This document shows positions 2,964 through 43,517 of a DNA stretch of 64,000 nucleotides, piece after piece; the first letter of the stretch is position 1; each line of letters begins with the position of its first letter. Both the position numbers and the translations under genes were made by a program. The notes below the pieces were generated by a model. That model made no database searches. It saw only the letters and a list, made by a program, of their open reading frames with translations, and was not told the origin of the DNA. The stretch comes from Shigella phage SSG23: the sequence record PQ351811; one strand, 5' to 3'.

Positions 2964-3482
2964 ATGAACCGTTTGACGCCTAAACGCCGTTACTATACCA
3001 ATACTAAAAACTTTGTCATCTCTGTTTATGAGGCATGGTTAGAAGATGGCTATATCAACATGAACCCAGATTATCAGCGTCCTTTGGTATGGGACACCGA
3101 AAACAAACGTATGTTTATCGAGAACATGATTAATGACTTTCCGGTCGGCGCTATCGCAATGGCTAAGATTGATGATGGCTCTCGCTATGAAATCGAAATC
3201 GTGGACGGCAAACAGCGTTTAAACGCAATATTCTCATTCATGAAGGATGAGTTTAGCATTGCGGGTAATGATGATTCTATGCTGTATTACAGCGATTTTA
3301 CGCCAGCAGAAAAGCGACGTTTCCGCAATCTAGGACTACCAGCGATCATGATGGAAGAGAGCACACGAGAAGATCGATTAGAATATTTCTACAAAACAAA
3401 CTTTTTCGGTGTGCCTCAATCAGAAGATCATCGCCAGCATGTGATTGCCCTATTGCAAGATGAGCAATTAAAAAATAACTAA
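2964..3482 (+). CDS. DUF262 (ParB-like / GmrS N-terminal type) domain protein
   Basis: PDYQRPLVW and IVDGKQRL motifs; start moved to ATG 2964 with SD aggaga 7 nt upstream. Confidence 0.6.
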   Translation: MNRLTPKRRYYTNTKNFVISVYEAWLEDGYINMNPDYQRPLVWDTENKRMFIENMINDFPVGAIAMAKIDDGSRYEIEIVDGKQRLNAIFSFMKDEFSIAGNDDSMLYYSDFTPAEKRRFRNLGLPAIMMEESTREDRLEYFYKTNFFGVPQSEDHRQHVIALLQDEQLKNN

Positions 3483-3489
3483 AAAGTTG

Positions 3490-3519
3490 TTGACAGGGGA
3501 TCATCGATCCCCCTATAAT
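3490..3519 (+). promoter_or_regulatory. PeSL-like early promoter with spacer hairpin
   Basis: ttgaca 3490-3495, palindrome ggggatcatcgatcccc, tataat 3514-3519. Confidence 0.65.
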
Positions 3520-3551
3520 GCACACATACCGAAACGAAAGGAGAATCAAAC

Positions 3552-3731
3552 ATGAAACACTTAACCATCGAATCAGCAATCATCGCAATCGCTAAAGTTC
3601 AAGCGGCTTATAATTGCACTGACCTTGAAGCAATTTCAAAAATGCAAGCGGCAGCAGCAAAAGCGGGTGATGAAAAATCTTTAGATGTTCTCTGCGAAAT
3701 CAAATCAGAATTAATTTCAAAAATGTTCTAA
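3552..3731 (+). CDS. hypothetical small early protein (59 aa), not in ORF track
   Basis: ATG 3552 after leader aggagaatcaaac; stop taa 3729-3731. Confidence 0.55.
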   Translation: MKHLTIESAIIAIAKVQAAYNCTDLEAISKMQAAAAKAGDEKSLDVLCEIKSELISKMF

Positions 3732-3737
3732 AAGTTG

Positions 3738-3766
3738 TTGACACGCGATAGGGTGTATAGCATAAT
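3738..3766 (+). promoter_or_regulatory. PeSL-like early promoter
   Basis: ttgaca 3738-3743, cataat 3761-3766, leader tacacccataccgaaaca. Confidence 0.65.
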
Positions 3767-7554: not shown

Positions 7555-8487
7555 TCAGAACCAGTTAGTGACAGTATTCACCACACGCCCACCAACGCCA
7601 TTTAGACGCGATAAAGCATTACCAGCAGCAGATAACCCACTATCAAGTAAATTGTTGCCGAAAGTGTTTGTTATTGCGTTTATTGCCTTATCCTCAATCC
7701 ATTCCCGCGCGGCTTGCTCTCCTACAGCACCAGTTTGCATAGAACGATATGCAAAAGTAACATCGAATGTTGTGATTTCGTTGTTATTTTCATAGGTTAA
7801 TTCCGGTGCACTCACACCAACAGGAACACAACCATTAAACATCATGATCGTGTGAGGAACTCCCATTCGGTTATGCAAGTTGACCTGAATATCTGCTTCA
7901 ACGTCAACAGGAAGCGCACGAAGCCCTGTAACGGGGTCTTCTACTGAGTTAACCCAATCCTGCATTGCTCTATAGTTTGATGCGCTAGAGTCCATTCTAA
8001 AGCTCAATACAAGCGGATCAAAATCACGTCCGGTAATTCTAATGTTTGGCGCATTGTGGTTACGGTCCATTTCATAACTCAATCTGTTTTCTGGAACCTT
8101 AACAGCATACACCAGAAGACCGCTTGTCTTATATGCCATATTGAACCAGTCAAGCGCATATGTACCAACATCAAATTGTCCCAGAAGAGATTGAACTACA
8201 CGAGATGACATTGCACCCAAAAGATACTTTTTGACACCGGATGAATCAACAGCACGCCTAACACCCTGTACAGCAAGATTAGTTAATGCGTCAGTATAAT
8301 CACCGCGAGTAATCCCGAAATAGTCATTTAATGCATTTGGTATAATATCATATACCGCACCGCCCATACTTTCTAGGATCGCTTGTGTCTTATTACTTGG
8401 AGTGGTGGCAAATGCCACGCTGAATAAGTTAGATCGCTGAAAGTCAAGGTTAGCGGCTTGTTCGTTAAAATCATTTAAATCAAACAT
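7555..8487 (-). CDS. 54: baseplate tail tube initiator gp54
   Basis: size and position in 29-48-54 order as in T4; ATG verified. Confidence 0.75.
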   Translation of the reverse strand: MFDLNDFNEQAANLDFQRSNLFSVAFATTPSNKTQAILESMGGAVYDIIPNALNDYFGITRGDYTDALTNLAVQGVRRAVDSSGVKKYLLGAMSSRVVQSLLGQFDVGTYALDWFNMAYKTSGLLVYAVKVPENRLSYEMDRNHNAPNIRITGRDFDPLVLSFRMDSSASNYRAMQDWVNSVEDPVTGLRALPVDVEADIQVNLHNRMGVPHTIMMFNGCVPVGVSAPELTYENNNEITTFDVTFAYRSMQTGAVGEQAAREWIEDKAINAITNTFGNNLLDSGLSAAGNALSRLNGVGGRVVNTVTNWF

Positions 8488-9545
8488 TATGCCGCACTCC
8501 CAAATATAGTACCACGGGAAAGTGTCAAGATCTCTCTAAATGATACTTCCAGAACAAAGGTACTAGGCAAGTTAGGAGAAATAGCAAGACCATTAAACTT
8601 ACCATCAGGCGACTTGTCCAGACGTACACTTGAGATCTGAGCGGGACCAAACGCATCGCTACGCCCTTCGAATGATGTGCGCTTACCGAAGTTAGAGATC
8701 ATCCATATTGTCGGGTTAGATACAGTAATTACGTTTGATAGAAAATCGGTGATCCCTTCAAACAAAGTATCATTTTTCTTTGCCTCGGCTGGAGTGGATT
8801 TGCTCAATAGAGTATTTTTATACCACGCATCAACTTCCGCTTTTAATTCCTTTGCGGTGCTAGAAATGCCACTAGAACCATAAGACAATTCTAAAAATGT
8901 TTCGTATATGATCAGAATATTGCGAAGGTCTTCAATACTACGTGGGGTTAGATGCCACACGTAGTTTTTAGTTCGTGCGTCAGCACCAGCATACATGCTT
9001 CGCGCAGTATTATAAATCTGTTCACCGTGATCGGCAAGGTATCCACCAGTAATACTTTCGATACCACCAAAAACGGCAGTAGATGCCATATTAGAAAGAG
9101 CACCGCCTAAAGTACCACCACCGCGAGAAATGACAGATTCACCAACATCATTAAACTTATGGCTAGCAGCGTCAACGTCAGATTGACTACGAGGAAGAAG
9201 AATATTAGCAATTGCCTCGCGGTCAAATGCAGCATTTCTCCCTCCCAAATTTAAATCAAAACCAGCGATATTAACGCTACCACCAAAACCGCTAGCAACA
9301 TTTTTCTTTTTCCTGAAATCACGCAGCGATCCAGTAGTACGAGATGTATAATCGTATGCAGTGAATAACAGACCATTATTATATAAGTCGTTGATATAGT
9401 AACCGCTAGCATCATTACCGCTAGCACGTTCAGCGGGGAATTGAGCGGTTAATGTTTTCCCTTTATTTTTTGAGGTAAAACCAGCGGAGGTTTTAACCCC
9501 CGCTTTAAAGCTATCAACGGCATCATTGATAACACTAATTTTCAT
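8487..9545 (-). CDS. 48: baseplate tail tube cap gp48
   Basis: T4 gene order and size. Confidence 0.75.
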   Translation of the reverse strand: MKISVINDAVDSFKAGVKTSAGFTSKNKGKTLTAQFPAERASGNDASGYYINDLYNNGLLFTAYDYTSRTTGSLRDFRKKKNVASGFGGSVNIAGFDLNLGGRNAAFDREAIANILLPRSQSDVDAASHKFNDVGESVISRGGGTLGGALSNMASTAVFGGIESITGGYLADHGEQIYNTARSMYAGADARTKNYVWHLTPRSIEDLRNILIIYETFLELSYGSSGISSTAKELKAEVDAWYKNTLLSKSTPAEAKKNDTLFEGITDFLSNVITVSNPTIWMISNFGKRTSFEGRSDAFGPAQISSVRLDKSPDGKFNGLAISPNLPSTFVLEVSFREILTLSRGTIFGSAA

Positions 9546-11278
9546 TAAAAGTTCCCCATATTAATTGTACCGGGGGCATCAATTCTAGTTGTTGGTGCAC
9601 CCTGTTTAATAGTTCTATTGTTTGTTACAATCTGTGTATTATTTACGTTTGAGGTCTGATTTGTCGTTTGTTGCTGGATTGCAGCTTGTTTCTGCATTTG
9701 TTCAGTACGTTCCGCTTGTTTTGCTGTTTCCGTTTCAGTTGCCGGAACTGGCTGTGTTTGCACAACACCCTTAGTTTTATCAGCATACATCTCATCAAAT
9801 TTTTCAATAAGACGCTCTAACTGAGAACGATCACTTTCAACTAATGTAGGATCTTGAACTTTCTCACGGTAAACATCAATATCCTTTTTCAACTCTCCCA
9901 TTTTTTCTTTGTCATAATCACCGCTCAAGTTCTCCATAACTTCATTAATATTATTGATCGCGCCCTCGCTTTTAATTCTAAGTTTACGACTAGCAGATCG
10001 TTGTTCAGCAGAAACAGACTCATACTCCCCGCGCTTTAATTCTTCTTGTCGTTTCTCTTCGTCAACATCCTTTTGATCTCTCCAACCCAGACTAACAAGA
10101 CCTTCGTTAACTTTATCCTTAATAGAATCACCGATAGCTTCGCCAATATCACGGGCTTTTCCGGTCCAACCAGTACGCTCTCCGTATTTGTCCTCTTCGT
10201 GTTCAGACTCGACCTTATCCATTAATTCGAGTTCTCTTTCGTTTGGCGTATAGCCTTGAGCGACAGCAGATTTTAAAGCACCATATTCTAACTTATCGGC
10301 ATAATCACCCATACCAGGGATCATGCGAAGAATTTTAGCAATACCAGTAGTGATAATTCGATCAAGTTGGATAAAGGTTTTATAGAATGCATCACCAATA
10401 CCCATAACAAGAGATTTAATTAATTCTCCATATTCGCCTTTAGACCAATAATCTCGAACTTGACGAATAGTTGTTAGAATATCACTAATTGGTCCAGCCC
10501 ATTCTCCGGCCTTATCCATAAATTCATCGAATTTTGTTTCGAATAAATCACTCCAATATCTGAAATGAATCATCAGGGTATCAATGGCAAAAACAATACC
10601 CATCAAAATAGCGCCCCATTTTGCGGCTTCTGCCATAGCGGTCAAGGTGATCTTAAATAACATCCCTAAGACCTTATTAGAGATACCTATGGTTTCTTTA
10701 AATCCTCCACGAACAACTTTAAGAAGATTTTCCATAGAATCCGCATTACGCTTATCTGCGGCGTTCTTTTTCTTCCGTTCCTCAACATCTGGTTTTTTCT
10801 TTGGAAGACCTTGATAGTTGTCATTATTAGGCTGTTCCGGTACAGTAGGCAAAACTGGCTGAGGTGATGGCATTGTTTGCGGTTGTTCCGGTTTTTTCAG
10901 TGCTTCTTCAATCGCACCAATACCGCTAGCCATTTTACTGACAACACCAAATCTACGTTCCATCATAACACCAAAACCACGTAATTTCTCATTCATCTGA
11001 GAAGAGAAATTATTGAGTTTTTGCAATTCTTCATAAGTTTTTTGGGTATTGCCAGCGGTAGATTGGGTATTCTCTGCCGTCAATTCATTGGCTGCGGTGT
11101 TATCCTCTACCGCACCAACAACTTCATTAGATTTTTGTTCTACTGTCTCCGCCACCAATTCGGTAGCGGCTTGCAAATTATCAATAGAATCAAGTTTATC
11201 TAATTTGTTAAGTTTATCAATCGGGTTTTCTTCCGCTTCCTTGCGCATCCCGCGAAATGATGTTAATGCGTCATTCAT
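9545..11278 (-). CDS. 29: baseplate hub / tail length determinant gp29
   Basis: T4 gene order and size (577 aa). Confidence 0.75.
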   Translation of the reverse strand: MNDALTSFRGMRKEAEENPIDKLNKLDKLDSIDNLQAATELVAETVEQKSNEVVGAVEDNTAANELTAENTQSTAGNTQKTYEELQKLNNFSSQMNEKLRGFGVMMERRFGVVSKMASGIGAIEEALKKPEQPQTMPSPQPVLPTVPEQPNNDNYQGLPKKKPDVEERKKKNAADKRNADSMENLLKVVRGGFKETIGISNKVLGMLFKITLTAMAEAAKWGAILMGIVFAIDTLMIHFRYWSDLFETKFDEFMDKAGEWAGPISDILTTIRQVRDYWSKGEYGELIKSLVMGIGDAFYKTFIQLDRIITTGIAKILRMIPGMGDYADKLEYGALKSAVAQGYTPNERELELMDKVESEHEEDKYGERTGWTGKARDIGEAIGDSIKDKVNEGLVSLGWRDQKDVDEEKRQEELKRGEYESVSAEQRSASRKLRIKSEGAINNINEVMENLSGDYDKEKMGELKKDIDVYREKVQDPTLVESDRSQLERLIEKFDEMYADKTKGVVQTQPVPATETETAKQAERTEQMQKQAAIQQQTTNQTSNVNNTQIVTNNRTIKQGAPTTRIDAPGTINMGNF

Positions 11279-18119: not shown

Positions 18120-20660
18120 ATGTCTGATAAAATCAATATTTTACATCAAACTATGGGTCCGGTCTACGCGTCTGTAGGACATGAACTTGTTCTTAAGCTC
18201 GTAGTAAGTACCGCAGATTTTAAAGACTATATCGTAGAATGGAAGCTAAACGGTCAAAGCGTACCATCAGATCAGGTTGCAGAACCAGATCAATCTCTGT
18301 ATATTGCTGAAATGGCAGAAAATCAATTCGGCACATATACAGCGAAAGTTAAGCTGAAAGATAATCCGCTTGAATCGGTTGATATTAAGCCTATTCTTGT
18401 TGAACGTCGCACCTTCCTTGCGCCACATGATCAATCTCCGACCTACATTTACAAGCGGTTAGGCGAAGAATTGGATATTTTTGTTACTCCGTTTATCGAA
18501 GATGATAAAGAGTTTGATACTATTTGGTATAAAAACCATATTCAGTTAGATCAAAGCAAAATCCAACAAAAAAACGTGCATGTAGATCGAGTTGGTTATG
18601 AGGATTTTGGTAACTATACTTGTAAGGTATTTGTTACCGATGATGCACGTTCTCACTATTGGATCAGTCCTGTAGTAGTGGAACAAAATAAAGATGCTCC
18701 TAAAGTTCATATTCAGGAACATTACCCATCAGCGGTTACAGTGGCAGAGGACACGCGATTGGATCTTGAAGTGTCTGTTACGACCGACGACAAAACGCGA
18801 CCATTGTCTTACGTGTGGATTCATAATGACAGGATGGTACTGGATCAAGACGGGACCGCACTGATTATACCGCATGTTACAAAAAAAGATGAGGGTGTCT
18901 GGCGTCTTGAAGTTCGTCAAGCAGAAACTACGGTCTATTCAAAAGATTGTCATGTTACAATACAAGGACGAGCGTTTTTCCGCTTCACTAAACAACCACA
19001 ATCGTTAAATGTGGGTGCTGGTGCTTTAGGTTTGTTCAGTGTTGATTTTGCAACCAACTACGAACCGGTAAAAGTTCAATGGTACATCAAGAAAAATGGT
19101 GAAGATGAATTTAAACCAATTGTTGGCGCAACTAATAAAGATCTTCACATTACACCCGCTACGCAAGAATTAAATCAGGCGAAATATAAGGCTAAGGTGA
19201 CTTATGGTGATAATCAGGTCGCCGATTCAGCAGAAGCGGACCTTCTTGTAGGCGCAGCACCTACTATTAGAATCACTAAGCAACCACAACAGTTAAACAA
19301 TGTTCGAGTTAGTTCTTCACAAACTCTTATTTGTGAAGCAACAACTGATTATGAGCATTATAAACTTGATTATCAGTGGTATAAAAATAATGAGTTGATT
19401 CCTGGAAAAACATCTAAAACTTTGCATTTTTCCTCAATCACTAAAGCAGATGAGGGTCAATATAAATGTAGAGTTTCTATGGGTATTCAGAATCATCGAA
19501 TTACGGCGGATTCTAACGAAGTTCAGGTTACGGTAGACAACTCAAAGGCTAATCTTGAAATCACGGTACAGCCTAAAGCGGTAAAAGTTCGTTCGGGTGG
19601 ACAATGGTCGCTGACTATCACAGCAACGTCTAATGATGCTTTGCCAGTTCGTTACCGTTGGTTTAAAGATGGTGAGGATCTTTTCCCGGCAGGAATTGAA
19701 CAACGAAACGTATATGGCGAAGACCATGCACAATTAACATCTACTGGCGTTTATACATGCCGTGTATCGGCTGGATTCGGTGAACATCGAGTTTCTAAAA
19801 TGTCGGATGCTGTTCGTGTGCTGATCTCAGACGATGTAACGGTTGTTCCAAATGACCTAGAAATAACAACTCACCCACAAGATGCGCATGTAAAATATAA
19901 TGAAAAACTTATGCTACATGCTGCCGCACAAACATCTATTGGTATTAAACCATCATATCAATGGAAAAAAGACGGTGAGATTATCCCAGGTGCAAATTCA
20001 GATGTATTGATCATTGATCACGCAAAACCGTCTGACGTAGGCAGCTACACAGCGGTAATTACGGCGGGTGAGAATACCATTGAATCTAATCCTGCATTAG
20101 TGACCATGACTCATCATTCAAATATCAATATTCTGAAACATCCGGTGGATGTGGTTGCTAAAGAAGGTCAGAAACAGGATATTACCTTAGAAGCTCATGC
20201 CGAACACGTTGATGATGAAAAAGAAGTTCAATGGAAATGGCATAAAATTCAGGGCGGTAAGGATACTGTTATTCCTGGCGCGAATAGTAAGGTGTATACT
20301 ATTCCTAAAGAACAAATTAGCAAGAATGCACATCAAGCAACCTATTATGCAGAAATTACTGACGACGAAGGACATGTTAAACATAGTGAAAAAGTTCGTG
20401 TGGTGTTTACTACCGCGAAATTAAAACGCTATGTACACCCGATTCCGTGGCGTCGTACTTCGTTCCAGTATCAAGGCTATTGGGTACTTGATGAAATTGA
20501 CCGTTGCAACCGCGAAGGGCTTAACTGGCTTGAGGATTTTACCCACACCAAATATCCAGACGAGATCGAGACTATTGCAGCCTCGTTGCATCACTATTCT
20601 AATACTCATGTATTGGAATCTCGTAATGGTTATCTGGTTGATGGTACTCAACTATTTTAA
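18120..20660 (+). CDS. hoc: Hoc-like outer capsid protein with about 8 Ig-like domains
   Basis: repeating roughly 95-aa Ig-like units; C-terminal YVHPIPWRRTSF..ESRNGY module resembles the remembered T4 Hoc capsid-binding end. Confidence 0.8.
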   Translation: MSDKINILHQTMGPVYASVGHELVLKLVVSTADFKDYIVEWKLNGQSVPSDQVAEPDQSLYIAEMAENQFGTYTAKVKLKDNPLESVDIKPILVERRTFLAPHDQSPTYIYKRLGEELDIFVTPFIEDDKEFDTIWYKNHIQLDQSKIQQKNVHVDRVGYEDFGNYTCKVFVTDDARSHYWISPVVVEQNKDAPKVHIQEHYPSAVTVAEDTRLDLEVSVTTDDKTRPLSYVWIHNDRMVLDQDGTALIIPHVTKKDEGVWRLEVRQAETTVYSKDCHVTIQGRAFFRFTKQPQSLNVGAGALGLFSVDFATNYEPVKVQWYIKKNGEDEFKPIVGATNKDLHITPATQELNQAKYKAKVTYGDNQVADSAEADLLVGAAPTIRITKQPQQLNNVRVSSSQTLICEATTDYEHYKLDYQWYKNNELIPGKTSKTLHFSSITKADEGQYKCRVSMGIQNHRITADSNEVQVTVDNSKANLEITVQPKAVKVRSGGQWSLTITATSNDALPVRYRWFKDGEDLFPAGIEQRNVYGEDHAQLTSTGVYTCRVSAGFGEHRVSKMSDAVRVLISDDVTVVPNDLEITTHPQDAHVKYNEKLMLHAAAQTSIGIKPSYQWKKDGEIIPGANSDVLIIDHAKPSDVGSYTAVITAGENTIESNPALVTMTHHSNINILKHPVDVVAKEGQKQDITLEAHAEHVDDEKEVQWKWHKIQGGKDTVIPGANSKVYTIPKEQISKNAHQATYYAEITDDEGHVKHSEKVRVVFTTAKLKRYVHPIPWRRTSFQYQGYWVLDEIDRCNREGLNWLEDFTHTKYPDEIETIAASLHHYSNTHVLESRNGYLVDGTQLF

Positions 20661-20694: not shown

Positions 20695-20709
20695 ATGGAG
20701 TGGCTTTAT

Positions 20710-21936
20710 ATGGCTTTCACAGTATCAATTAAATCAAACAAAAGATGTTTTCTTGCTGGAGATGGTTTCACATTAACAGCGACTGTAGCAGGTGACGAAC
20801 CATTACCCAGCAATTTGACCTATACATGGACAAAAGACAACAAACCGCATGAAAATAACACCGCTACGCTAACCGTAGAAGGTGCAACAAGTGAAAATGC
20901 GGGTAACTATAAAGTCACTGTACAAGATACCGACAGCGGGGAATCTGTAGAATCTGACGTTTTCCGCATGGAAGAAGCTGAATTAATCGTTAAGATCACC
21001 GAACCGCCGCAATTCTATGTTCCTACTCACACAGACGTAGAATTACACGCAACCGTCAAATTTTCTGGCGGGAAGACTCCAACAGACAACTATGAACTAC
21101 ATTATAGTTGGAGTAAGGGCGAAGAAGTTATAGACACAACACAGGATATCACGATCCAAGAATTTACAGCAGATAACAACGGTGTGTATACTGTAAAAGT
21201 ATGGGGAGAATCGGAAGATTCAGCCGATAGCGCATCGACTAAAATCATGCTAGCAACAATGAGCGTAGAACAGGATGTGGTGGCATCAAAGACCGTAGCA
21301 CTAGGTAAGGAGATCTTACTTAATTATGTTGTGTCAGAGGACATTGTAGGCGATTCTAGCGGTATGCCTAAATTGACTATCAAACATAACTGGTATTTGC
21401 AACGTGAAGGACAGCCGTCACCGACTCTGATCGGTAGTGAGGTCGGCGAAGCACTGGAAGGATTTTCTATCATGCCAGATGGTCATCTGTTCAAAGAGCG
21501 TGCTACTTACGACGATACAGCCAAATTCTGGTGTGTTGCTAAACTATATCAACAGATCGAAGACGCAACAGTAGAACTTGCAGCACGTACAAGCAGAAAA
21601 TGTTCAATGGAAGTTGTTGAATCTCTTCATAAAATGTTCCGTTATGTGCACCCGATCCCGTGGCGCAAAACTTCATTCATCTATATTGGATGGTGGGTAT
21701 TTGACGAGATTGTTAAATTCAATGAGGCTGGGTTAGAGTGGCGTCACCGAGAAGTTTATTCAACCAGCAAGTACGCCAAAGATCTGGAGACAATCGCGGC
21801 AGCGGAAGAAAAATATAGTGATTGCACTTGCATGGAATCTCGCAATGGTTTCATGTATCAGTCCAAAGAGTTCCATAAACTGGACCGAGAGACGTTAGAG
21901 CGAGTTCTACGCATTCGTGAAACGCCTCCTGCTTAA
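20710..21936 (+). CDS. hoc: Hoc-like outer capsid protein, T4-sized with 3 Ig-like domains
   Basis: MAFTVSIKS N-terminus resembles remembered T4 Hoc MTFTVDITP; C-terminal YVHPIPWRKTSF..ESRNGF; start moved from 20695 to ATG 20710. Confidence 0.85.
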   Translation: MAFTVSIKSNKRCFLAGDGFTLTATVAGDEPLPSNLTYTWTKDNKPHENNTATLTVEGATSENAGNYKVTVQDTDSGESVESDVFRMEEAELIVKITEPPQFYVPTHTDVELHATVKFSGGKTPTDNYELHYSWSKGEEVIDTTQDITIQEFTADNNGVYTVKVWGESEDSADSASTKIMLATMSVEQDVVASKTVALGKEILLNYVVSEDIVGDSSGMPKLTIKHNWYLQREGQPSPTLIGSEVGEALEGFSIMPDGHLFKERATYDDTAKFWCVAKLYQQIEDATVELAARTSRKCSMEVVESLHKMFRYVHPIPWRKTSFIYIGWWVFDEIVKFNEAGLEWRHREVYSTSKYAKDLETIAAAEEKYSDCTCMESRNGFMYQSKEFHKLDRETLERVLRIRETPPA

Positions 21937-24089: not shown

Positions 24090-25331
24090 TTAAGCGTTGT
24101 CGATCTCAAGTGGTGGCAGTTCGATACCTAAAATGTAGGACATTTCTGAACGTCCAGCAAGTTTAGCCCACTCGTCACCCTTGACGATCTGGTGTTCTTC
24201 CTGATCAACTTTTGCTGTGTATGGGTTGACAGAAAGTGAATAACGATTCATAATAGCTACATGGTGTTGGAAGCTGTTAGGGTCAATTACGCTCTTATAC
24301 GCTCCAGCGCCATCGGCTTCTGTGTATGGGGAGTAGAACAGAGAACCTACACTCTCCATATCACCGATCATGTGCTTACAACCAACGAGCATATAATCGA
24401 AAGGTGTTGTCGTGTCTGCGTACACTTCAAGACCGCAACGTAGACGACCTTCGCTTAGAGCGTTGTCGGTTTCTTCCATCCATCCGGTAGATTGCAGGAG
24501 GCCAACCACGCGAGAAGACGCCAAAACGTATGTACCAGCAAAGGAGGAAGTACGCAACATTTGATTGCTCATTTCGCAAGCATAGCGGTAAAGTTCGCGA
24601 GCTTGTTTTGGTGCATCCTGAACGCTAACTAGAGAAAGTACGCCATCAGGGGTGATCCCTTTAATTTTATAGCGAGTTGATACAGTGATCAACTTCTGTA
24701 TAATATCTTTGTTGATCTCTTCGGAAGCGACAGTAGCCAGAAGATCAATTACAGAGTTTTCAGAGTTGATTTGGCTTGCTTCAAGATCCTGCATTAATTC
24801 AGTGGTGAACGAGGTTTTCAGTTTACGAGAACCTACATTAACCTGCCACTTGTCAAACTGCATTGACGTTGATGAGATCTCTGTGTTTTTATCTTCAAAG
24901 TATTCTACAGGTGCACAGTCGCTATAGAAACGAATTTTGTTTGTCATCACGCCTTTGAAAATTGCAGCTTCCGGCGTAGCGGCATCTTCACCGACTGTAC
25001 CAGCGGTCACAACTTCGTATACAACATCGCCAGATTTGAACAATGCGCCTTCGTCATAGGATTTTTCTTTTGAAAACTCTTCGATCTCTGTGCGATCGCC
25101 AGCCGCGCCACCATAGGTTGCAGCGGACCGGAAAGTCATCTGACCATCACGGTTAAGATAGCGTAGGCCGTACAATGCAGACACTGGTTGATCCGTTGGC
25201 TGGATTGCTACCAGATCAGAGAAAATCAGGTTGTTTACCGCGCGAGTTAATGATAATAGTTGCGGTCGCGCTGTCTGGTTAGCTACTGAGGAAGTGGATT
25301 CCCGCAACAGTTCAGTAAAAATATGAGTCAT
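24090..25331 (-). CDS. 24: capsid vertex protein gp24
   Basis: MTHIFTELLRESTSS..RPQLLSLTRA..SDLVAIQPTDQPV resembles remembered T4 gp24; start moved to ATG 25331. Confidence 0.9.
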   Translation of the reverse strand: MTHIFTELLRESTSSVANQTARPQLLSLTRAVNNLIFSDLVAIQPTDQPVSALYGLRYLNRDGQMTFRSAATYGGAAGDRTEIEEFSKEKSYDEGALFKSGDVVYEVVTAGTVGEDAATPEAAIFKGVMTNKIRFYSDCAPVEYFEDKNTEISSTSMQFDKWQVNVGSRKLKTSFTTELMQDLEASQINSENSVIDLLATVASEEINKDIIQKLITVSTRYKIKGITPDGVLSLVSVQDAPKQARELYRYACEMSNQMLRTSSFAGTYVLASSRVVGLLQSTGWMEETDNALSEGRLRCGLEVYADTTTPFDYMLVGCKHMIGDMESVGSLFYSPYTEADGAGAYKSVIDPNSFQHHVAIMNRYSLSVNPYTAKVDQEEHQIVKGDEWAKLAGRSEMSYILGIELPPLEIDNA

Positions 25332-25368
25332 GTTTATGAATCCTGTATTTGCCTTAATGGATATATCA

Positions 25369-25376
25369 TATTTATA
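25369..25376 (-). promoter_or_regulatory. T4-type late promoter TATAAATA for gp24
   Basis: tatttata on + strand, 38 nt upstream of the start. Confidence 0.65.
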
Positions 25377-25377
25377 C

Positions 25378-25407
25378 AAAAAGAAAAGGGAATCCCGAAG
25401 GATTCCC
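25378..25407 (-). terminator. rho-independent terminator ending the accessory late operon
   Basis: gggaatcc-cgaa-ggattccc hairpin followed on the - strand by ttttcttttt. Confidence 0.65.
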
Positions 25408-25416
25408 AAATAAAAA

Positions 25417-25569
25417 TTACTTCTTCCTAGAAACATTATCAACGCTACGGTTAACTTTGTTTACCAGATTAATTGCATGATCAGAACGAATAATTGCATA
25501 AGCTAATGCTAACATCAATTCGTCGTATTCCTTACGAGTCATAACATAGCTGTTTTCTTTCTTACTCAT
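25417..25569 (-). CDS. hypothetical small protein (50 aa), not in ORF track
   Basis: ATG with SD aggagg upstream; lies inside the late operon before its terminator. Confidence 0.4.
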   Translation of the reverse strand: MSKKENSYVMTRKEYDELMLALAYAIIRSDHAINLVNKVNRSVDNVSRKK

Positions 25570-25579
25570 GCATTCCTCC

Positions 25580-26512
25580 TTATGGAGAATTTGGGGTTAA
25601 TTCAGGGAACAGCGTACCAAAACCAAAATTACCGCTAGCGTCACGCTGGAATGTCATAACAAGATCGACATAAACCGGATCTGTAAATCTATCAAATCTA
25701 TCCGACCCAATATCAACCATGAACGCTAATTTAATCTCATTGGAATTTGAGATCGCAGCGTCAGCACATGCACCAAAAATTACCTGAGTATCTTTTGCCG
25801 TATATGCATTGACCTGTATGTTGGTTGGTTTCATTACATCGTTAGACAAACCAGATAGTTCTACTCGTCCATTAAATGACGCCAGACTTTGACCACCACC
25901 TAGATAATGAATATGACCACCTTGTGAAGATTGTGTCCAGTCCATAAGCATAACCTTAAATCTAGCCTCAAAACGACCTTCCACGTAATATCGACCAGTT
26001 TCAAAGTTTTGTCTAATTGGTGTCCATGTTATATGTGGTTTTCCGCTTACAGGGTCGACAAGAGTTATGCCTACTGCTGGCGTAATACCTACACTATCAA
26101 ATGAACGTGATAGCCAGTTCCATGTTTGATTGTCTAGGTTTGGCAATTGTGGAATATTCAATCCATCTAATCGGCTGTGTGCTCGTGCTGCTTCCGATTC
26201 TGCGGTAGTCGCTTTAGTCAGTGCATCAGTTGCTTTGCTCATGGATTGCCCTGCCGTTCGATCCGCAACGTCAGCCGTATTTTTTGCGACTTCTGCCGTT
26301 CGGTGTGCCGAACTTGCTGTTTCTGATATTACGTCATCACACGCAATAACAAAATCAATTACAGGATCAATTAACTGAGTGTTGATTGAATTTGAAATTC
26401 TTTCAACATCACTTTCCATTAGAGCATTTGATTCGTTACCAGTGAAATGAGTAATTTCACCTTGAACAAAGTCATTTTGCAACTTACTGATCTTTGCTTT
26501 AATATCGGTCAT
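25580..26512 (-). CDS. hypothetical late protein, possibly structural (310 aa)
   Basis: Ala/Thr-rich helical N-terminal part and beta-rich C-terminal part; co-oriented with capsid genes. Confidence 0.55.
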   Translation of the reverse strand: MTDIKAKISKLQNDFVQGEITHFTGNESNALMESDVERISNSINTQLIDPVIDFVIACDDVISETASSAHRTAEVAKNTADVADRTAGQSMSKATDALTKATTAESEAARAHSRLDGLNIPQLPNLDNQTWNWLSRSFDSVGITPAVGITLVDPVSGKPHITWTPIRQNFETGRYYVEGRFEARFKVMLMDWTQSSQGGHIHYLGGGQSLASFNGRVELSGLSNDVMKPTNIQVNAYTAKDTQVIFGACADAAISNSNEIKLAFMVDIGSDRFDRFTDPVYVDLVMTFQRDASGNFGFGTLFPELTPNSP

Positions 26513-26529
26513 TGATCACCCCTCACTAA

Positions 26530-28260
26530 TTATTGCACTGGTTGCTGGCCTTCTTGCGGAGTTGCTTCAACGCTTTCGATGATAGCACCCCATTTAACCG
26601 CGTTAAGACGAGCTTTTTGTGCATCATCTTCCCCTACGGTCGCCGCAACGCCTTTTTTAGCTTGGAAGTTAGCCCATGTGTTATACGCCAATGCACCAAC
26701 TCTTTTTGCTGTGTCGTATTCTACTTCGTCGACCATCAGCATTGTACGGAATGGTACTAATGAAACATCTGGGTTATCGCTTGATGACCAACTACCACCA
26801 CTAAAGGTAACTTGCCATCGGAACATCTCACCGGATGGTATTTGATTTAATCTCAATTTTAGAGATTTGGTTTTTTGGTTTTTTGTTGCCACGTCAAAAC
26901 CGATATTATAACGCGCGGCTAAACGCTCGCTTCCGTCATTTGTCCTGTGCCACGCCGTTACTGTGAATAAAATAGGAATTGTTTGTGGCGTTTTTATAAA
27001 ACCAACATCAAAAAGCAATTCCATATCATAGCTACCAGATTTAGGCGCAACCCACCAATGATCGGCGTCATTTTGTCGGTTTGGCTCTTTTATTTGTGGA
27101 GTGCATCCATAGTTATCATGAATCACATATTTCCACGGAATATAAAATGAACCGCCACCAGTACCAACATTTGTTTCTTCTATCAGGTTTTGTGCAGTAG
27201 TAAACACGCTGGATACACGAGGAAACGCATAAATGGTAGCACCGCCAGTGTGATCGCTGATCTGCAACCATTCGGTCCATCGATCAGTTCTCTTTGTATA
27301 TGAGCGGTGATACATTACGCCATCAATGCTTGTTGCGATCTGCAATACATGATCTTTACATGCATGAACATCTACAGAACCATGTGTTTGTGTTCCATTT
27401 GGACGGTTTGCCGACCCCTCAAAGTAACAGAAACGGCCTTGTTTAGTCAAGGTGTTCAGGTCGCGGGTTTCTGGTGAAATTTCAGGCAGACGTTTACCCA
27501 GACTGGTTAACATTGCCTCCTGATCACCATTTAAACCACCGCCACCACTTCCTTCCCCGCTTTGAGAGTTCCACTCACGCCATGCACCATTGTGTCGGAT
27601 ACGAGAGTAAACACCACCATCAATAGAACGGACCACTTGAAGAATGCTACCATCGACGACATATACATCTGCGGACCCCTTATTCGCCATCATTGGAGGT
27701 TTGCCATAAGTTGCATCACCTACCGGATAGCGTCCGGGTGATGTGGTTACATCCAGATTATTAATTGGATTCGTCGTAGTCCATTTTACTTCAATTGCAG
27801 ATAGACGCTGCGCAACGTTCGCTAATACTTCTGGTACTGGAAATACAAGAGACTCCTGTGTTCCGTCTGAGTACGTGACTTCTAGAGTCCAGTTGCGATC
27901 GTCCTCGGACAAATTCGCTTCGATCCTAGCAATACCACGTCCATTTTCGCCCTTTTCTCCAGGAATACCCTGTTCACCCTGAATAACCCAGGTCATATCG
28001 ACCCATTTTGATTTATCGTAGGGAGATTGTGCTGTTTTACCAGTCCATAATTGGAGTTTATCACCACAAACAATAATTGTTTTTAGTCTCTCCAATTCTG
28101 GAAAATGTTCGGTAAAGTATGCGTCCCTAGCTTCTTCATTTTCGAAACGGTGAGTATTTTTAATTCCGCAAGGTACGTTAGTTCCGATCTGAATACCGCC
28201 ACCAGAACAACCACCACTCACGGAACCAGCATTAATGATAGCTTGTGGATTTAGCTTCAT
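26530..28260 (-). CDS. collagen-like, glycine-rich fibre-like protein
   Basis: GEQGIPGEKGENGRG triplets; Gly-rich tracts; two similar Y-x-R..W-x-E-W segments; start moved from TTG 28284 to ATG 28260 with SD gggggtaa. Confidence 0.6.
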   Translation of the reverse strand: MKLNPQAIINAGSVSGGCSGGGIQIGTNVPCGIKNTHRFENEEARDAYFTEHFPELERLKTIIVCGDKLQLWTGKTAQSPYDKSKWVDMTWVIQGEQGIPGEKGENGRGIARIEANLSEDDRNWTLEVTYSDGTQESLVFPVPEVLANVAQRLSAIEVKWTTTNPINNLDVTTSPGRYPVGDATYGKPPMMANKGSADVYVVDGSILQVVRSIDGGVYSRIRHNGAWREWNSQSGEGSGGGGLNGDQEAMLTSLGKRLPEISPETRDLNTLTKQGRFCYFEGSANRPNGTQTHGSVDVHACKDHVLQIATSIDGVMYHRSYTKRTDRWTEWLQISDHTGGATIYAFPRVSSVFTTAQNLIEETNVGTGGGSFYIPWKYVIHDNYGCTPQIKEPNRQNDADHWWVAPKSGSYDMELLFDVGFIKTPQTIPILFTVTAWHRTNDGSERLAARYNIGFDVATKNQKTKSLKLRLNQIPSGEMFRWQVTFSGGSWSSSDNPDVSLVPFRTMLMVDEVEYDTAKRVGALAYNTWANFQAKKGVAATVGEDDAQKARLNAVKWGAIIESVEATPQEGQQPVQ

Positions 28261-28267
28261 ATAATAA

Positions 28268-28576
28268 TTACCCCCGTTTAGCAAGATACACGGTTACAGT
28301 AGAATCATTGGAAACAGATTTTACTTTTGCCCTAATAAATGACCATAATGTTTCAAACGCTCCACCATCAGTTGCATATTCATTACCATCAGCTTTCAAT
28401 TCTGAAATAGTGAACCAACCTTTGCCATCTAGAGAACCTTCTAACGAGGCTTCCGCAATGACTTTTTGCCCTTCCCGTGCACCTTCTACGGTCATCTGTA
28501 CTGTCATATGTGTACTATGAACGCAGTTTACCGACGCGGAAACGGCTGGAGTTTTGGTCTTTATAAGTGTGTGCAT
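28268..28576 (-). CDS. hypothetical late protein (102 aa)
   Basis: ATG start with TATAAATA about 39 nt upstream; first gene of the accessory late operon. Confidence 0.6.
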   Translation of the reverse strand: MHTLIKTKTPAVSASVNCVHSTHMTVQMTVEGAREGQKVIAEASLEGSLDGKGWFTISELKADGNEYATDGGAFETLWSFIRAKVKSVSNDSTVTVYLAKRG

Positions 28577-28614
28577 CTAATTTTCGCTCCCCTTAGAATA
28601 TAGGCTTGCAACCT

Positions 28615-28622
28615 TATTTATA
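28615..28622 (-). promoter_or_regulatory. T4-type late promoter TATAAATA
   Basis: tatttata on + strand upstream of the 102-aa gene. Confidence 0.6.
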
Positions 28623-28635
28623 ACGGGATATAATA

Positions 28636-28667
28636 CGCAAAAAGGGAAGACCCTTTCGAGTCTTCCC
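28636..28667 (-). terminator. rho-independent terminator after gp23
   Basis: gggaagac-cctttcga-gtcttccc hairpin followed on the - strand by ttttt. Confidence 0.65.
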
Positions 28668-28737
28668 TTTGGAATTAACACTTTACACTGTCATAAGGTT
28701 TATGATAAGTCGGGCATTGCACCCGACCGGAGTTTAA

Positions 28738-30336
28738 TTAGCAACCTTTAACCCATACACGGCGGAAGTATGCGTTTTTACCTACGCTGTCTTTGCTCAA
28801 CATGCCGGAGGTGATGCGAGCGGAAGGTGCCTGGGTTTTGCTGTCTGCGAACGGGTTAATACCGATGCCGTAGCGAGTCTTAAAGCCCAGAACCGGGTGG
28901 AAAGACTGCGGATCGGTTGCACGCAGCGGAGTCAGAGCAACATACGGCGCATAGTAGATACCAGCATCCATTTCGTTATCGCCTTTGTAACCTACGGTGA
29001 AGTAGTCCTGACGAGCATACTGGTCGATGAATACTTTGTACTTACCAGCCAGAACACCAGCGAAAACAGCTTTAGTTGTGTCGGTATTCAGACCTTTTGC
29101 AGCACCCTGCATAGCAACACTGATCCCCTGATCAGCAGAAGCCAGAATGTTTACAACGTTACGGGAAGCGATAACAAAGTTACCAGCACCGCGACCAGTC
29201 TGACGAGCGATTTCAGCAGCTTCTTTGTCGATCTGGTAGATCAGAGATTTGAAGGATTCACCAGCCCAGCGAGCACCGCGAGTATCGATCGGGTCTTGCA
29301 GGTCAAATACACCAGCTTTAGAACCAACGGTCTGAGTCATGCCAGTCTTACCAACCTGAGCGGTAAAGTTGATTACGTCAACGATTTCACGGTTGATTTC
29401 CAGCAGAACTTCGTTAGCCAGAATAGCATTCAGTTCAGCGTCAGCGTCCATACCGTGTACAGCACGCAGATCCTGCGCAACTTCGATAGAGTAACGGGCT
29501 TTCAGTTGGCGAGATTTCGCTTCAACTACCTGTTTGTCAATACGCATTGACATTTCAGCCCACGGGTTATTGCTGGAACCGTTAAAGCCTTCCTGAATTT
29601 CCGCGATGGAAGTAGCCATACCGAAAGCGATTTCAGCCAGTTTACCTTCTTCCATCAGCTTCATTACTACTTCATCTTCGGATTCGTTGCTGGTTTTTTG
29701 CGGTGTTACTGCGTCAGTACCAACGTTTTGCAGATATGCAATTCCAGTTTCGGCGAAGATATGATACACAATATCACCTGCTTGGATCGCTTGGGACAGC
29801 TGGAGTTGTTGGAATGCAGTACCAGTAGGAGAACCAGTCGTTGCATTTTTTGCAGCCAGAGAGCTATGAAATGCATTCGGCGCATACATCGGGTGGAATG
29901 CTTCACGAACATTTTTAGGATTGCCACCTGCCAGCGGATCTGGACCGTATACAGAACGGATTGCAAAGATCTGGCTGGTCGGGGTGCTCATCGGCTGAAC
30001 GCCACAAATATCAAATGCGATCAGGTTAGGAATAGCACGACGAACCATACCGATAACAGCCGGACCTACGTTGGTGATTGCGCCAGTAGTCTGACCTGCG
30101 GCGATTTTGGATGCATCATAACCGTGGTCGCCAGCAACTTCTGCTTCGGTGATAAAGCCGCCAAATGCTTCAACAACTTTTTCATCCTTATAGATCGGGT
30201 CTACAGCAAAATCCGCTTCCTGAGATTCCAGAATTTTAGCAACCAGTTTCTGCTTAGACGCAGTTGCGATTTCCGGCAGTTTTTCGTTTTCCAGCAGCGG
30301 GGACCATTTTTCCATCAGTTCTTTGGTAGTTTTCAT
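28738..30336 (-). CDS. 23: major capsid protein gp23
   Basis: long collinear similarity to remembered T4 gp23 (MVRRAIPNLIAFDICGVQPM, DYFTVGYKG, NAYFRRV). Confidence 0.95.
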   Translation of the reverse strand: MKTTKELMEKWSPLLENEKLPEIATASKQKLVAKILESQEADFAVDPIYKDEKVVEAFGGFITEAEVAGDHGYDASKIAAGQTTGAITNVGPAVIGMVRRAIPNLIAFDICGVQPMSTPTSQIFAIRSVYGPDPLAGGNPKNVREAFHPMYAPNAFHSSLAAKNATTGSPTGTAFQQLQLSQAIQAGDIVYHIFAETGIAYLQNVGTDAVTPQKTSNESEDEVVMKLMEEGKLAEIAFGMATSIAEIQEGFNGSSNNPWAEMSMRIDKQVVEAKSRQLKARYSIEVAQDLRAVHGMDADAELNAILANEVLLEINREIVDVINFTAQVGKTGMTQTVGSKAGVFDLQDPIDTRGARWAGESFKSLIYQIDKEAAEIARQTGRGAGNFVIASRNVVNILASADQGISVAMQGAAKGLNTDTTKAVFAGVLAGKYKVFIDQYARQDYFTVGYKGDNEMDAGIYYAPYVALTPLRATDPQSFHPVLGFKTRYGIGINPFADSKTQAPSARITSGMLSKDSVGKNAYFRRVWVKGC

Positions 30337-41747: not shown

Positions 41748-43517
41748 TTATACCGGAGAAATCCCAAAGAGGAACTCTTTAATTTGTACTGGCTGTGCTA
41801 CTGCTTCGGCAGATACACCCTTAATACGGATGTTAATCTGATCGCCCTTTTCAATATTTAGGAAAGCACTGGTAGAATAGCTGATCAATTCGTCTGTGCC
41901 GTAATGACCATTTTTCGCTTCATATACCATCTGTCCATTTTTGAAAATCGCAACAATGAATGTTGCATTATGTTGAGCGTGTACAGCGCAACGGAATACA
42001 CAACGGAATAAACCCTTGTCCTGAACGGTAACAACAGATTCACTTTTCACCATTTGACGCACATTAACTTCCGACGCCATGTCGTTAAGCGGAATCGGTT
42101 TATAAACATCCTGTTCGTTAAGTTCAACCGTAATGTCTGCGGTATTTTTAAATGCTCCAGCAGCATATGCAACTTGCACCCATTCGCCGTGCTTACGCAG
42201 ATAATGAAAACCGTCATCAGGAACATCATCTACTTTGTTTTCGTTAGATGTTTGTAACTCTTTGACGATTTTAATCACGCCTTTCTGAGTAAATGGATCA
42301 TCTGAACCATCATCACCATAGATATCACTTGACAGTTTAATAACGCCAGCGGTCAAACCTGATTCGCGATCACCTACAAGCTGTTCCATGTCCTGTACGC
42401 TTGCTTCTAACCGACCCTGAGTGTTTTCTACAACTTTAAGACGTCCGGCTAGAGTATGTCGATCTCTGTCAGTACCAATCTCATTGGAAAGTCGAGCAAC
42501 TTCACCGCGCAAACCGTCAGCACCGCTTACGCCAACAACCTGTTTAAGATCTAAAAATTCTCGCTCTGTGTTGGTTAATCGATAATCAAGGCTTCCCGCC
42601 GATTGAGGCGTTCCGATCTTGTTTTCAACTGCCAGAAGACGAGGACGAATACCAGAATCTACACCATTAACATCATCGTTTAGACGTTCATAATTAGTGC
42701 CTAGCGTAGTGACTTTAGTCCCGATATCAGGGATTGAATCAAACAAAATTGCTTTCTTGACTTCTAGAACTTCATTTGATAAGTTAGCAATGTTTCTTGC
42801 GTTGGTGCGGAGACGAACATACACATTTTCTTGTGTTGCAAGAGATGTGTCGCCGATCTCGCTGCGCATTTTGTTAACTTGTTTTGTTAACTCGCCTACG
42901 TCAGAATCTTGCCAGTCGTTTTCTAGCTGAACGATTCGGCGACCGTGGTCATTTAATGCTGCGGTATTCTGGATAACTCGGTATTTGATGCCGGAACCGG
43001 AATTACCCGCATCAGGAGAACCATTAATATTGAAGTTAGGATAAGAACCCATTTCTTGTTTGATGAAAGAAATATCATCATAGATTGTTCTTGTGCTCGG
43101 ATCGGCAGCGGGGCGATCACCAATCTTGATGTTAAGTTCTGATACAGCGTCTACCGTTGTTTGCAGCGTTTTTGCTGTTTCTCCTAAGTTCTCTTCGACG
43201 GATTCAACTTTTGCGACAGTCTGGTTAACCACATCAATGATACTTCCGTCAGAAATTGCCCCTAAAGTTGTTTTAATATCGTTAACCGCCGTTACAACTT
43301 CGTTAACTTTAGCGACGGTTGATTTTGCGTTTTCGTTTACGCGTGCAACGTTTTCTTGAATTGCAACCGGGGCGCGGTTAAGCGTCCCGTCATTGCCAGT
43401 CTGTGTCGTTGCTGCGCTTAAACATTCGCCATTCTTGATCCAATTAATCCGGTGCTGTCCTTCGCCTGGTACACCGTCAACATTTGGGATCTCGTGGATG
43501 TTTAATTGTTCAATCAT
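41748..43517 (-). CDS. wac: fibritin (neck whisker) Wac
   Basis: long coiled-coil protein between 12 and 13. Confidence 0.75.
   Translation of the reverse strand: MIEQLNIHEIPNVDGVPGEGQHRINWIKNGECLSAATTQTGNDGTLNRAPVAIQENVARVNENAKSTVAKVNEVVTAVNDIKTTLGAISDGSIIDVVNQTVAKVESVEENLGETAKTLQTTVDAVSELNIKIGDRPAADPSTRTIYDDISFIKQEMGSYPNFNINGSPDAGNSGSGIKYRVIQNTAALNDHGRRIVQLENDWQDSDVGELTKQVNKMRSEIGDTSLATQENVYVRLRTNARNIANLSNEVLEVKKAILFDSIPDIGTKVTTLGTNYERLNDDVNGVDSGIRPRLLAVENKIGTPQSAGSLDYRLTNTEREFLDLKQVVGVSGADGLRGEVARLSNEIGTDRDRHTLAGRLKVVENTQGRLEASVQDMEQLVGDRESGLTAGVIKLSSDIYGDDGSDDPFTQKGVIKIVKELQTSNENKVDDVPDDGFHYLRKHGEWVQVAYAAGAFKNTADITVELNEQDVYKPIPLNDMASEVNVRQMVKSESVVTVQDKGLFRCVFRCAVHAQHNATFIVAIFKNGQMVYEAKNGHYGTDELISYSTSAFLNIEKGDQINIRIKGVSAEAVAQPVQIKEFLFGISPV

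Follow-up and report, generated by a model that had tools for sequence, protein, structure and literature searches.

Candidate accessory adhesin fibers encoded by a late gene cassette between the gp23 and gp24 genes of Shigella phage SSG23

What are four genes with hypothetical products doing between two capsid genes of a T4-like phage? In Shigella phage SSG23 (sequence record PQ351811), of which a stretch of 64,000 nucleotides was analyzed and is referred to below as the window, the genes for the major capsid protein gp23 and the vertex protein gp24 are separated by four open reading frames (ORFs), designated here ORF102, ORF576, ORF310, and ORF50. We propose, with moderate confidence, that this interval is a dispensable, late-expressed, and swappable cassette of virion-borne accessory adhesin fibers. 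Structural models support a fiber or adhesin architecture for both ORF576 and ORF310, and fold and profile searches matched these proteins to R-pyocin fibers, tail fibers, receptor-binding heads, and TNF/C1q domains, in agreement with an initial annotation that had suggested this character from the letters of the sequence.

The interval is organized as a transcription unit of its own. Along the minus strand, on which all cassette features lie, the order is gp21, gp22, gp23, terminator, TATAAATA, ORF102, ORF576, ORF310, ORF50, terminator, TATAAATA, and gp24. The first TATAAATA, a T4-type late promoter found by motif search at 28615..28622, precedes ORF102 (28268..28576), ORF576 (26530..28260), ORF310 (25580..26512), and ORF50 (25417..25569). 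The cassette is closed by a strong intrinsic terminator at 25378..25407, with a stem-loop (25407-25388) whose 8-bp stem includes five GC pairs and a T-run extending to about 25378. The description of a four-gene late-strand unit with its own promoter and terminator, and with products of 102, about 575, 310, and 50 amino acids (aa), was thus borne out, the ORFs found encoding 102, 576, 310, and 50 aa. We place the start of ORF576 at the ATG that follows a GGGGG ribosome-binding site; an alternative, mechanically called TTG at 28284 would give 584 aa. The window holds nine copies of TATAAATA, all on the minus strand, a count that is not above chance (the mean in shuffled sequences was 5.6, and nine copies were reached in 11 of 100 shuffles). 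The significance of the motif lies instead in its placement, because both the equivalent position and the hairpin that follows gp23 recur in relatives. The motif occupies the equivalent position in seven related loci (those of phages JK32, Brandy, and Phi1 and the metagenomic loci that we label L007, L008, L014, and L017) and is degenerate there in L004 and L005. The hairpin, an intrinsic terminator read from the sequence at ~28639..28667 as GGGAAGAC-loop-GTCTTCCC followed by TTTTT, is overlapped in part by a program-predicted site and has an equivalent in all related loci. These observations support the view that the cassette is a self-contained, autonomous late transcription unit of four tightly packed ORFs.

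The cassette ORFs are real genes under purifying selection and not chance reading frames. We collected 21 homologues of ORF576, which measure 555-576 aa (two shorter partial entries aside), extend down to 46% identity, and have many invariant Trp, Cys, and Gly positions, together with 17 homologues of ORF310 (299-311 aa) and five full-length homologues of ORF102. Compared with JK32, the ratio of nonsynonymous to synonymous substitution rates (dN/dS) was 0.12 for ORF102, 0.13 for ORF576, and 0.10 for ORF310. The dN of these three genes was about three times that of gp23 in the same comparison; with dN/dS near 0.1, the cassette genes are thus faster evolving than gp23 yet clearly constrained. 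No transmembrane-like segment or signal peptide was detected in the products of the four ORFs, and library searches returned no enzyme, defense, or membrane signatures for the cassette proteins. Subthreshold matches to FlgD-Tudor, FlgE, JetC, Cas6, KdsC, and a beta-propeller repeat were dismissed as noise. All GenBank copies of the cassette genes are labeled "hypothetical protein," so that the module is not one that had already been characterized.

In order to describe the first fiber, we consider ORF576 from its N terminus outward. An AlphaFold2 model of the monomer, built from a 20-sequence alignment, had a moderate pLDDT of 64, with the separate domains resolved. Conservation delimits an N-terminal alpha/beta domain, the presumed anchor, at aa 36-94 (36-89 in the model; 27979..28155). 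Together with aa 1-35, this domain is the most conserved part of the protein, with a mean pairwise identity of 0.71-0.81; distally, mean identity was 0.5-0.6 in ORF576 and 0.6-0.7 in ORF310, compared with 0.81 at the N termini. The N-domain was found at or near the N termini of many otherwise unlike fiber-like proteins, including those of L014, L016, L017, and L019. A lipoprotein reading of the ORF576 N terminus (…SGGC…) was rejected, as the protein is without a hydrophobic leader and the cysteine is not conserved.

The N-domain is followed by five Gly-X-Y triplets at aa 95-109 (GEQGIPGEKGENGRG; 27934..27978), presumed to form a short collagen-like triple helix. Four of the five glycines (G95, G98, G101, and G107) do not vary among the homologues, and the remaining one, G104, shows conservation of at least 90%. 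The homologue P0021 is without exactly one triplet, which keeps the glycine periodicity with an indel in multiples of three residues. The stretch is disordered in the AlphaFold2 model, as expected of a monomer. The conserved triplets fit a short triple helix that would set the register of a trimer. The collagen-like character assigned by the initial annotation was therefore sustained by five conserved triplets but not by family membership, the run lying below the Pfam Collagen threshold. The N-domain relatives with longer Gly-X-Y runs do reach PF01391. The other sequence features quoted for the proteins, namely the Gly-rich tracts and the pair of related segments, are likewise all present.

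Past a small beta unit at aa 110-141 in the model, ORF576 carries two beta knobs set apart by a Gly-rich linker and a helix, with pLDDT values of ~70-82. Knob 1 spans aa 166-232 (166-230 in the model; 27565..27765) and was defined by the repeat, by profile comparison, and by Foldseek, and knob 2 spans aa 265-336 (265-334 in the model; 27253..27468) and was defined by the repeat and by Foldseek. The two are the product of an internal duplication (31% identity over 65 aa; E = 6e-12), and hence the two related segments seen at the outset are a true internal repeat. A Foldseek search of the PDB returned the R1 pyocin fiber 6cl5_A with an E value of 2.9e-8. At the sequence level, the profile of knob 1 against the R2 pyocin fiber (6cl6/6ct8) gave E values of 0.9-1.3, which are not significant, with a collinear motif consisting of NLD..G.., a hydrophobic strand, Q, and DG..Y.R.R....W..W. 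Proteins with knob matches, also in multiple copies, carry Peptidase_S74, YadA_head, GDPD, or Gp53-like_C, which are hallmarks of fibers and spikes. The homologues P0003, P0005, and P0006 carry a precomputed match to PF27308.1, an accession to which we could not attach a name, probably on a variant of knob 2.

The distal part of ORF576, at aa 345-561 (26578..27228), was assigned by Foldseek and BFVD matches as a TNF/C1q-like jelly roll with a helix after it; in the AlphaFold2 model, the jelly roll occupies aa 350-512. With this C-terminal domain, Foldseek retrieved upward of 30 structures of the TNF family, together with a C1q domain, at E values of 1e-5 to 2e-4 and target TM-scores of 0.5-0.67, and Pfam C1q and TNF families did not match ORF576. 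The top PDB matches of ORF576 were phi812 baseplate chains, the R1 pyocin fiber, and the P68 tail fiber, and then TNF-family and C1q structures. Among the BFVD matches, most of the named ones were tail-fiber, minor-tail, baseplate, BppU, "C1q domain containing," and collagen proteins. A reading of ORF576 as a sialidase was discarded on Foldseek TM-scores of just 0.13-0.15.

The monomer model of ORF310 (pLDDT 76) shows a long helix of 88 residues at aa 30-117 (26162..26425), presumed to form a trimeric Ala-zipper coiled coil, and a confident beta-sandwich with strands at aa 136-291. This agrees with the helical N-terminal half and beta-rich C-terminal half described initially. The head domain as a whole spans aa 136-305 (25598..26107) and ends in the motif NFGFGTLFP. 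The profile of ORF310 matched the Lpp-56 trimer (1jcc) with an E value of 0.005. Scores against the families Alanine_zipper (PF11839; 21.9 bits against a cutoff of 23.1) and Ala_zip_lipo (NCBIfam NF040598; 21.5 against a cutoff of 43) fell below threshold. An Lpp/OprI lipoprotein reading of ORF310 was rejected on these scores and on the lack of a hydrophobic leader or lipobox. No homology between ORF576 and ORF310 was found (hhalign probability of 0.2%).

ORF102, a candidate adaptor or base of the first fiber, is a small and probably beta-rich protein that matches phrog_16217 (function unassigned; E = 2e-21). Profile hints to F5/8-type-C or CBM32 motifs were weak (E = 0.02-0.5). Homologues of ORF102 were found only in the gp23-gp24 slot, including the variant cassettes of L014 (36% identity; E = 5e-17) and L017. 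No homology to ORF102 was detected for the 87-aa proteins encoded upstream of N-domain fibers in L018 and a Vibrio phage. ORF50, a small, basic, and probably helical protein, matches phrog_16600 (function unassigned; E = 8e-38) and corresponds to ORF162 of Phi1.

The slot between gp23 and gp24 holds related modules elsewhere. Metagenomic T4-like contigs carry this module of four genes as well, with products of 100-102, 561-564, 303-309, and 43-49 aa and invariably between gp23 and gp24. A profile search of the full library returned only four full-length representatives and about 280 proteins with single modules in common. In L017 the slot reads gp23, a 102-aa protein, a 675-aa protein with the N-domain and Pfam Collagen, an 828-aa protein, and gp24, and in L014 it holds proteins of 99 aa (the ORF102 homologue), 869 aa, 1322 aa, and 298 aa, followed by gp24. 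The first 105 residues of the 869-aa protein are 37% identical to ORF576 and lead into a different shaft; the other large ORFs in these two slots have no family matches on record. The combination of a constant ORF102-type protein and N-domain/collagen start with exchanged distal parts is the pattern of virion-anchored receptor-binding fibers. Judged by these gene contents, the gp23-gp24 slot is a recurrent site of variable, putative fiber cassettes in T4-like phages.

Within T4-like phages, ORF102 and the N-domain of the first fiber always travel together, and N-domain genes occupy the gp23-gp24 slot in the window, L004, L007, L014, and L017. In the T4-like locus L016, the N-domain lies at the hoc/inh locus, where two Hoc-like proteins and Inh are followed by a 391-aa protein with an N-domain, collagen, and a coiled coil. 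In L019 (Vibrio phage 489E54-1, ~48 kb), a 1015-aa N-domain protein is encoded at 7627-10674, between the head-tail adaptor and tail-completion genes. All N-domain genes with a readable neighborhood sit in a head or neck block. The position of the gene in Vibrio phage 489E54-1, where it is preceded by an 87-aa ORF, resembles that of a neck-passage structure.

The distal domains of the two fibers also occur together in phages of another kind. Free-standing homologues of the ORF576 C-domain, ~300 aa in length, are present in T7-like phages. The only distant match among deposited phage records was the unannotated gut contig MT835695, in which a 189-aa protein that ends in NFGLGNMFP, compared with NFGFGTLFP in ORF310, has immediately after it a 290-aa homologue of ORF576 aa 348-549 (E = 2e-13). 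Such an adjacent pair, with a protein of 170-199 aa followed by one of 295-304 aa, was found in four more loci, all in T7-like human-gut contigs (L006, 5099-6546; L009, 2748-4222; L011, 3910-5308; and L013, 4457-5888). These four contigs carry a T7 terminase, a T7-type DNA-packaging protein, or a T7 tail-fiber N-domain. The pair lies downstream of a tail-fiber gene, where one is seen, and upstream of nrdD, with XkdX-family genes nearby in two loci. Alignment of the short proteins with the ORF310 head covered 156 columns with an hhalign E value of 3e-4, and both the short proteins and ORF310 carry the motif (V/L)M(D/E)SD in their N-terminal part. These data make homology between the ORF310 head and the short T7-like proteins probable. 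The recurrent adjacency of homologues of the ORF310 head and the ORF576 C-domain suggests that the two proteins probably act together, in which case Krischvirus has probably mounted the two distal domains on long stalks. At 6419-10162 of L013, nrdD itself is apparently in three pieces, split by two HNH/NUMOD4 homing-endonuclease ORFs.

The distribution of the module within its genus indicates loss. The interval 25300-28750 is 100% identical to that of Shigella phage SFHK24 (PQ351812), a member of Krischvirus, the genus that includes Phi1 and JSE. In a tblastn search of 50,697 phage records, full-length ORF576 was present in only five, all Krischvirus: SFHK24, Brandy, UPWr_E1, vB_EcoM_G2248, and JK32. 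This is consistent with the earlier remark that the module is absent from the T4 layout. Most of the ~50 further matching records (Phi1, JSE, GEC-3S, and others) match in the flanks only. In Phi1 the interval consists of deletion scars. Terminator and promoter are still there, and ORF102 survives as its ribosome-binding site and opening codons. Of ORF576, a 115-bp piece from the interior remains (window 27036-26922; 77% identity), and of ORF310, the final ~160 bp; ORF50 is intact. Retention of ORF50 holds even where the fiber genes are deleted. The 45-aa "ORF161.1" of Phi1 is a 3' remnant of the ORF310 gene and accounts for the match to phrog_20809. These scars indicate that the genus had the module ancestrally, that the lineage of the reference strains lost it by deletion, and that it is dispensable on laboratory hosts; read in this way from the genomes compared, it is not an insertion peculiar to this phage. 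Positions 3001-3745 of the Phi1 locus (L002; EF437941) correspond to window positions 28568-28760, 26922-27036, and 25300-25743, and the retained late promoter presumably now drives ORF162.

Two further genomes carry altered versions of the cassette. In Brandy (L001), a 1-bp deletion at ~27527-27537 (GGTTTAAATGG) splits ORF576 into two annotated coding sequences at a slippery-type heptamer, T TTA AAT. Programmed frameshifting was considered and rejected, as the Leu-Asn codon pair is apparently not conserved in JK32 in the protein alignment and a -1 shift would stop after three codons. A sequencing error or a real inactivation is the more likely explanation. In JK32 (L003), a fifth cassette gene at 1136-2980, between the homologues of ORF310 and ORF50, encodes a 614-aa "tropomyosin-like" product, which is probably a third coiled-coil fiber.

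We infer association of the products with the virion, and with it a trimeric state, an attachment site, a ligand, and an interaction between ORF576 and ORF310, as follows. ORF576 would be a trimeric fiber made up of an N-terminal anchor, a short collagen-like triple helix, two knobs of the type known from saccharide-binding pyocin and phage fibers, and a TNF/C1q-like distal head. ORF310 would be a second trimeric fiber, in which a conserved peptide at the N terminus leads into a coiled-coil stalk like that of Lpp and a beta-sandwich head of putative receptor-binding type; it may be docked on ORF576. ORF102 would serve as the adaptor or base of the first fiber on the particle. Such fibers would sit on the outside of the virion and provide a primary, reversible adhesion to a surface glycan, adding to the long and short tail fibers.

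The nearest structural parallels to ORF576 are the fibers of R-type pyocins and P2-like phages (6CL5 and 6CL6; Buth et al. 2018, as cited in PMC7296036 and PMC11871291), with which it has in common two tandem knobs in a predicted trimeric fiber and then a distal binding domain; knob domains are described as common in saccharide-binding fibers (PMC11871291). The two differ in that the distal domain of ORF576 is a TNF/C1q-like jelly roll, whereas pyocins have a lectin-like foot, and in that the N terminus of ORF576 is a different domain with collagen triplets, whereas pyocins have a helical shaft. In addition, the ORF576 gene lies among head genes and not in a tail cluster, and the sequence similarity is not significant (E ~1). 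A second parallel is with proteins that combine collagen with C1q or TNF. Those of the BclA type have a collagen stalk and a C1q/TNF head, and in known cases the TNF-like jelly roll trimerizes and binds ligands. C1q is reportedly listed in a catalogue of receptor-binding domains of eCIS tail fibers. ORF576 resembles the BclA type, and the phage "C1q domain containing" proteins in BFVD, in having Gly-X-Y triplets and a C-terminal TNF-like jelly roll but differs in having just five triplets, two knobs between the collagen and the head, and no score that reaches Pfam C1q or Collagen. For ORF310, aa 63-118 align with the trimeric Ala-zipper coiled coil of Braun lipoprotein Lpp (PF11839; 1JCC); in contrast to Lpp, ORF310 is not a lipoprotein, having neither signal peptide nor lipobox, and the likeness may reflect coiled-coil composition.

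Systems that decorate the head offer parallels in gene arrangement. In the head spike of the gene transfer agent (GTA) RcGTA, the small jelly-roll base protein Rcc01079 on capsid pentamers holds the N terminus of the fiber Rcc01080, and the spikes bind the capsule reversibly (PMC7296036). The cassette is similar in its pairing of a small protein with a fiber gene, its place beside capsid genes and next to gp24, and the covariation of ORF102 with the N-domain. The likeness is an analogy drawn from gene arrangement and covariation, and the cassette fiber differs in being predicted to be trimeric and multidomain. The fibritin (wac) whiskers and Hoc of T4 are nonessential, late, surface-exposed, fibrous or elongated decorations of the virion, and the cassette fibers would be comparable as nonessential late surface decorations. 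Kinship with Hoc was not detected: with the cassette proteins as queries, BLASTP returned nothing at E ≤ 0.01 from the pair of Hoc-like proteins in the window, no Ig Pfam families matched, and the C-terminal capsid-binding block of Hoc is absent from the cassette proteins. The parts of the cassette are of known kinds: knobs as in pyocins, triplets resembling collagen, a head of TNF/C1q type, a stalk with an Ala-zipper, and a second head that is putatively of receptor-binding type. What appears to be undescribed is their combination, the occurrence of a late four-gene cassette among capsid genes, the repeated variation of that cassette, the scars that its deletion has left in reference strains, and the gene pair in common with T7-like gut phages.

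Several neighboring features of the window bear on the setting. The gp23 gene, at 28738..30336 on the minus strand, was identified from its ORF, from the major-capsid annotation of its counterparts in Brandy, Phi1, and JK32, and from PF07068 in related loci. The gp24 gene, annotated as such in Phi1 and Brandy, lies at 24090..25331 on the minus strand, with its true start at the ATG at 25331 and with the second TATAAATA, the gp24 late promoter, at 25369..25376, directly past the cassette terminator. A mechanically called gp24 ORF (24090-25442, minus strand) opens at a TTG at 25442 and would cross both that terminator and the gp24 late promoter. Two Hoc paralogues are apparently present in the phage, encoded by adjacent plus-strand genes for proteins of 846 aa (18120-20660) and 413 aa (20695-21936). 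Both end in a common conserved block, YVHPIPWR…TSF.Y.G.WV.DEI…ESRNG, and the same pair occurs in L004, L007, and L016. The ORF at 41748-43517, with a 589-aa product, may be wac, a guess that we make from its position.

A number of observations weigh against the reading of the interval as virion-borne accessory fibers or against a head location for them. Searches of Pfam, PHROGs, NCBIfam, PADLOC, and PDB sequences with all four proteins returned no curated family at threshold, and PF01391 did not match ORF576 at E values up to 1, five triplets being all that the protein has. Literature on SFHK24, UPWr_E1, Krischvirus, and T4-like gp23/gp24 with collagen yielded no proteomic, electron microscopic, genetic, or functional work on members of the cassette. 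ORF576 is disrupted in Brandy, and the homology of ORF310 to the short T7-like proteins is only probable, with an hhalign probability of 39%. With respect to location, the structural relatives of the cassette proteins are overwhelmingly tail fibers, and the paired C-domains adjoin a tail-fiber gene in T7-like phages. In T4, moreover, the gap between gp23 and gp24 holds the homing-endonuclease gene segD; this suggests a permissive insertion site, in which case adjacency to capsid genes may say nothing about attachment. From gene neighborhood, we lean toward attachment that is proximal to the head or neck rather than at the baseplate. The RcGTA head spike is a documented precedent for a fiber held by a small base on capsid vertices. 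A more specific form of the proposal, by analogy with GTA head spikes, is a swappable, head-borne, two-segment fiber system that acts as a second host-range locus: ORF102 would form a capsid-borne base, for which the gp24 vertices are a plausible site, and the N-domain and collagen of ORF576 would plug into that base, with ORF310 as a tip adhesin on the ORF576 C-domain, and the system would have been lost in laboratory strains and its modules exchanged with T7-like gut phages. We regard this detailed version as doubtful.

The same fold matches raise the alternative that the products are auxiliary receptor-binding fibers on the baseplate or on existing fibers, which would directly broaden host range, as do the lambda side tail fibers or the extra fibers and spikes of multivalent myophages. 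The nearest folds (phi812, P68, R-pyocin, AP22 gp53 [4MTM], a lactococcal receptor-binding head [2FSD], and PSA gp15), the co-occurrence of knob modules with tail-fiber hallmarks, and the position of the paired C-domains just downstream of a T7-type tail-fiber gene, with XkdX near, all speak for a tail location. However, no N-domain gene examined here sits in a baseplate or tail-fiber block, the proteins are not similar to the N-terminal regions by which known T4 fibers attach and have no match to a Pfam tail-fiber N-domain, and the fiber sockets of a T4-type baseplate are defined and already occupied. We consider a tail-borne arrangement possible, if unlikely. The products might alternatively stay off the virion, either as soluble lectin-like proteins that are released on lysis and then bind to debris or mask receptors, or as factors in the assembly of other structures. 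The module is dispensable, its incorporation into particles is a deduction, and ORF50 is kept in all relatives, which shows that part of the unit works independently of the fibers; a constant anchor at the N terminus joined to variable distal parts is nevertheless the signature of particle-attached fibers, and the products have neither a signal peptide nor a transmembrane segment and show no similarity to chaperone or enzyme families. This makes a nonvirion role improbable in our estimation. Finally, deletion of the module from most sequenced Krischvirus genomes and the Brandy frameshift could be taken to mean that it is a decaying remnant or a selfish moron without current function. A dN/dS of ~0.1 across ORF102, ORF576, and ORF310, intact full-length ORFs in conserved synteny down to 46% identity, and conserved promoter and terminators already disfavor that idea, which we judge very improbable indeed.

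An exchangeable cassette of accessory adhesin fibers, the reading that we prefer, would matter in several respects. Krischvirus and other T4-like phages are under development against Escherichia coli and Shigella, and an unrecognized, dispensable set of fibers, carried by few isolates and lost by deletion from the reference strains Phi1 and JSE, could explain differences in adsorption and host range beyond those due to the canonical gp37 and gp38. As a hot spot of exchangeable fiber cassettes with a conserved anchor, the gp23-gp24 slot could be used as a starting point for engineering and as a marker in metagenome surveys. The conserved pairing of distal domains across T4-like and T7-like phages defines a putative, uncharacterized two-protein binding module whose structure would be worth solving.

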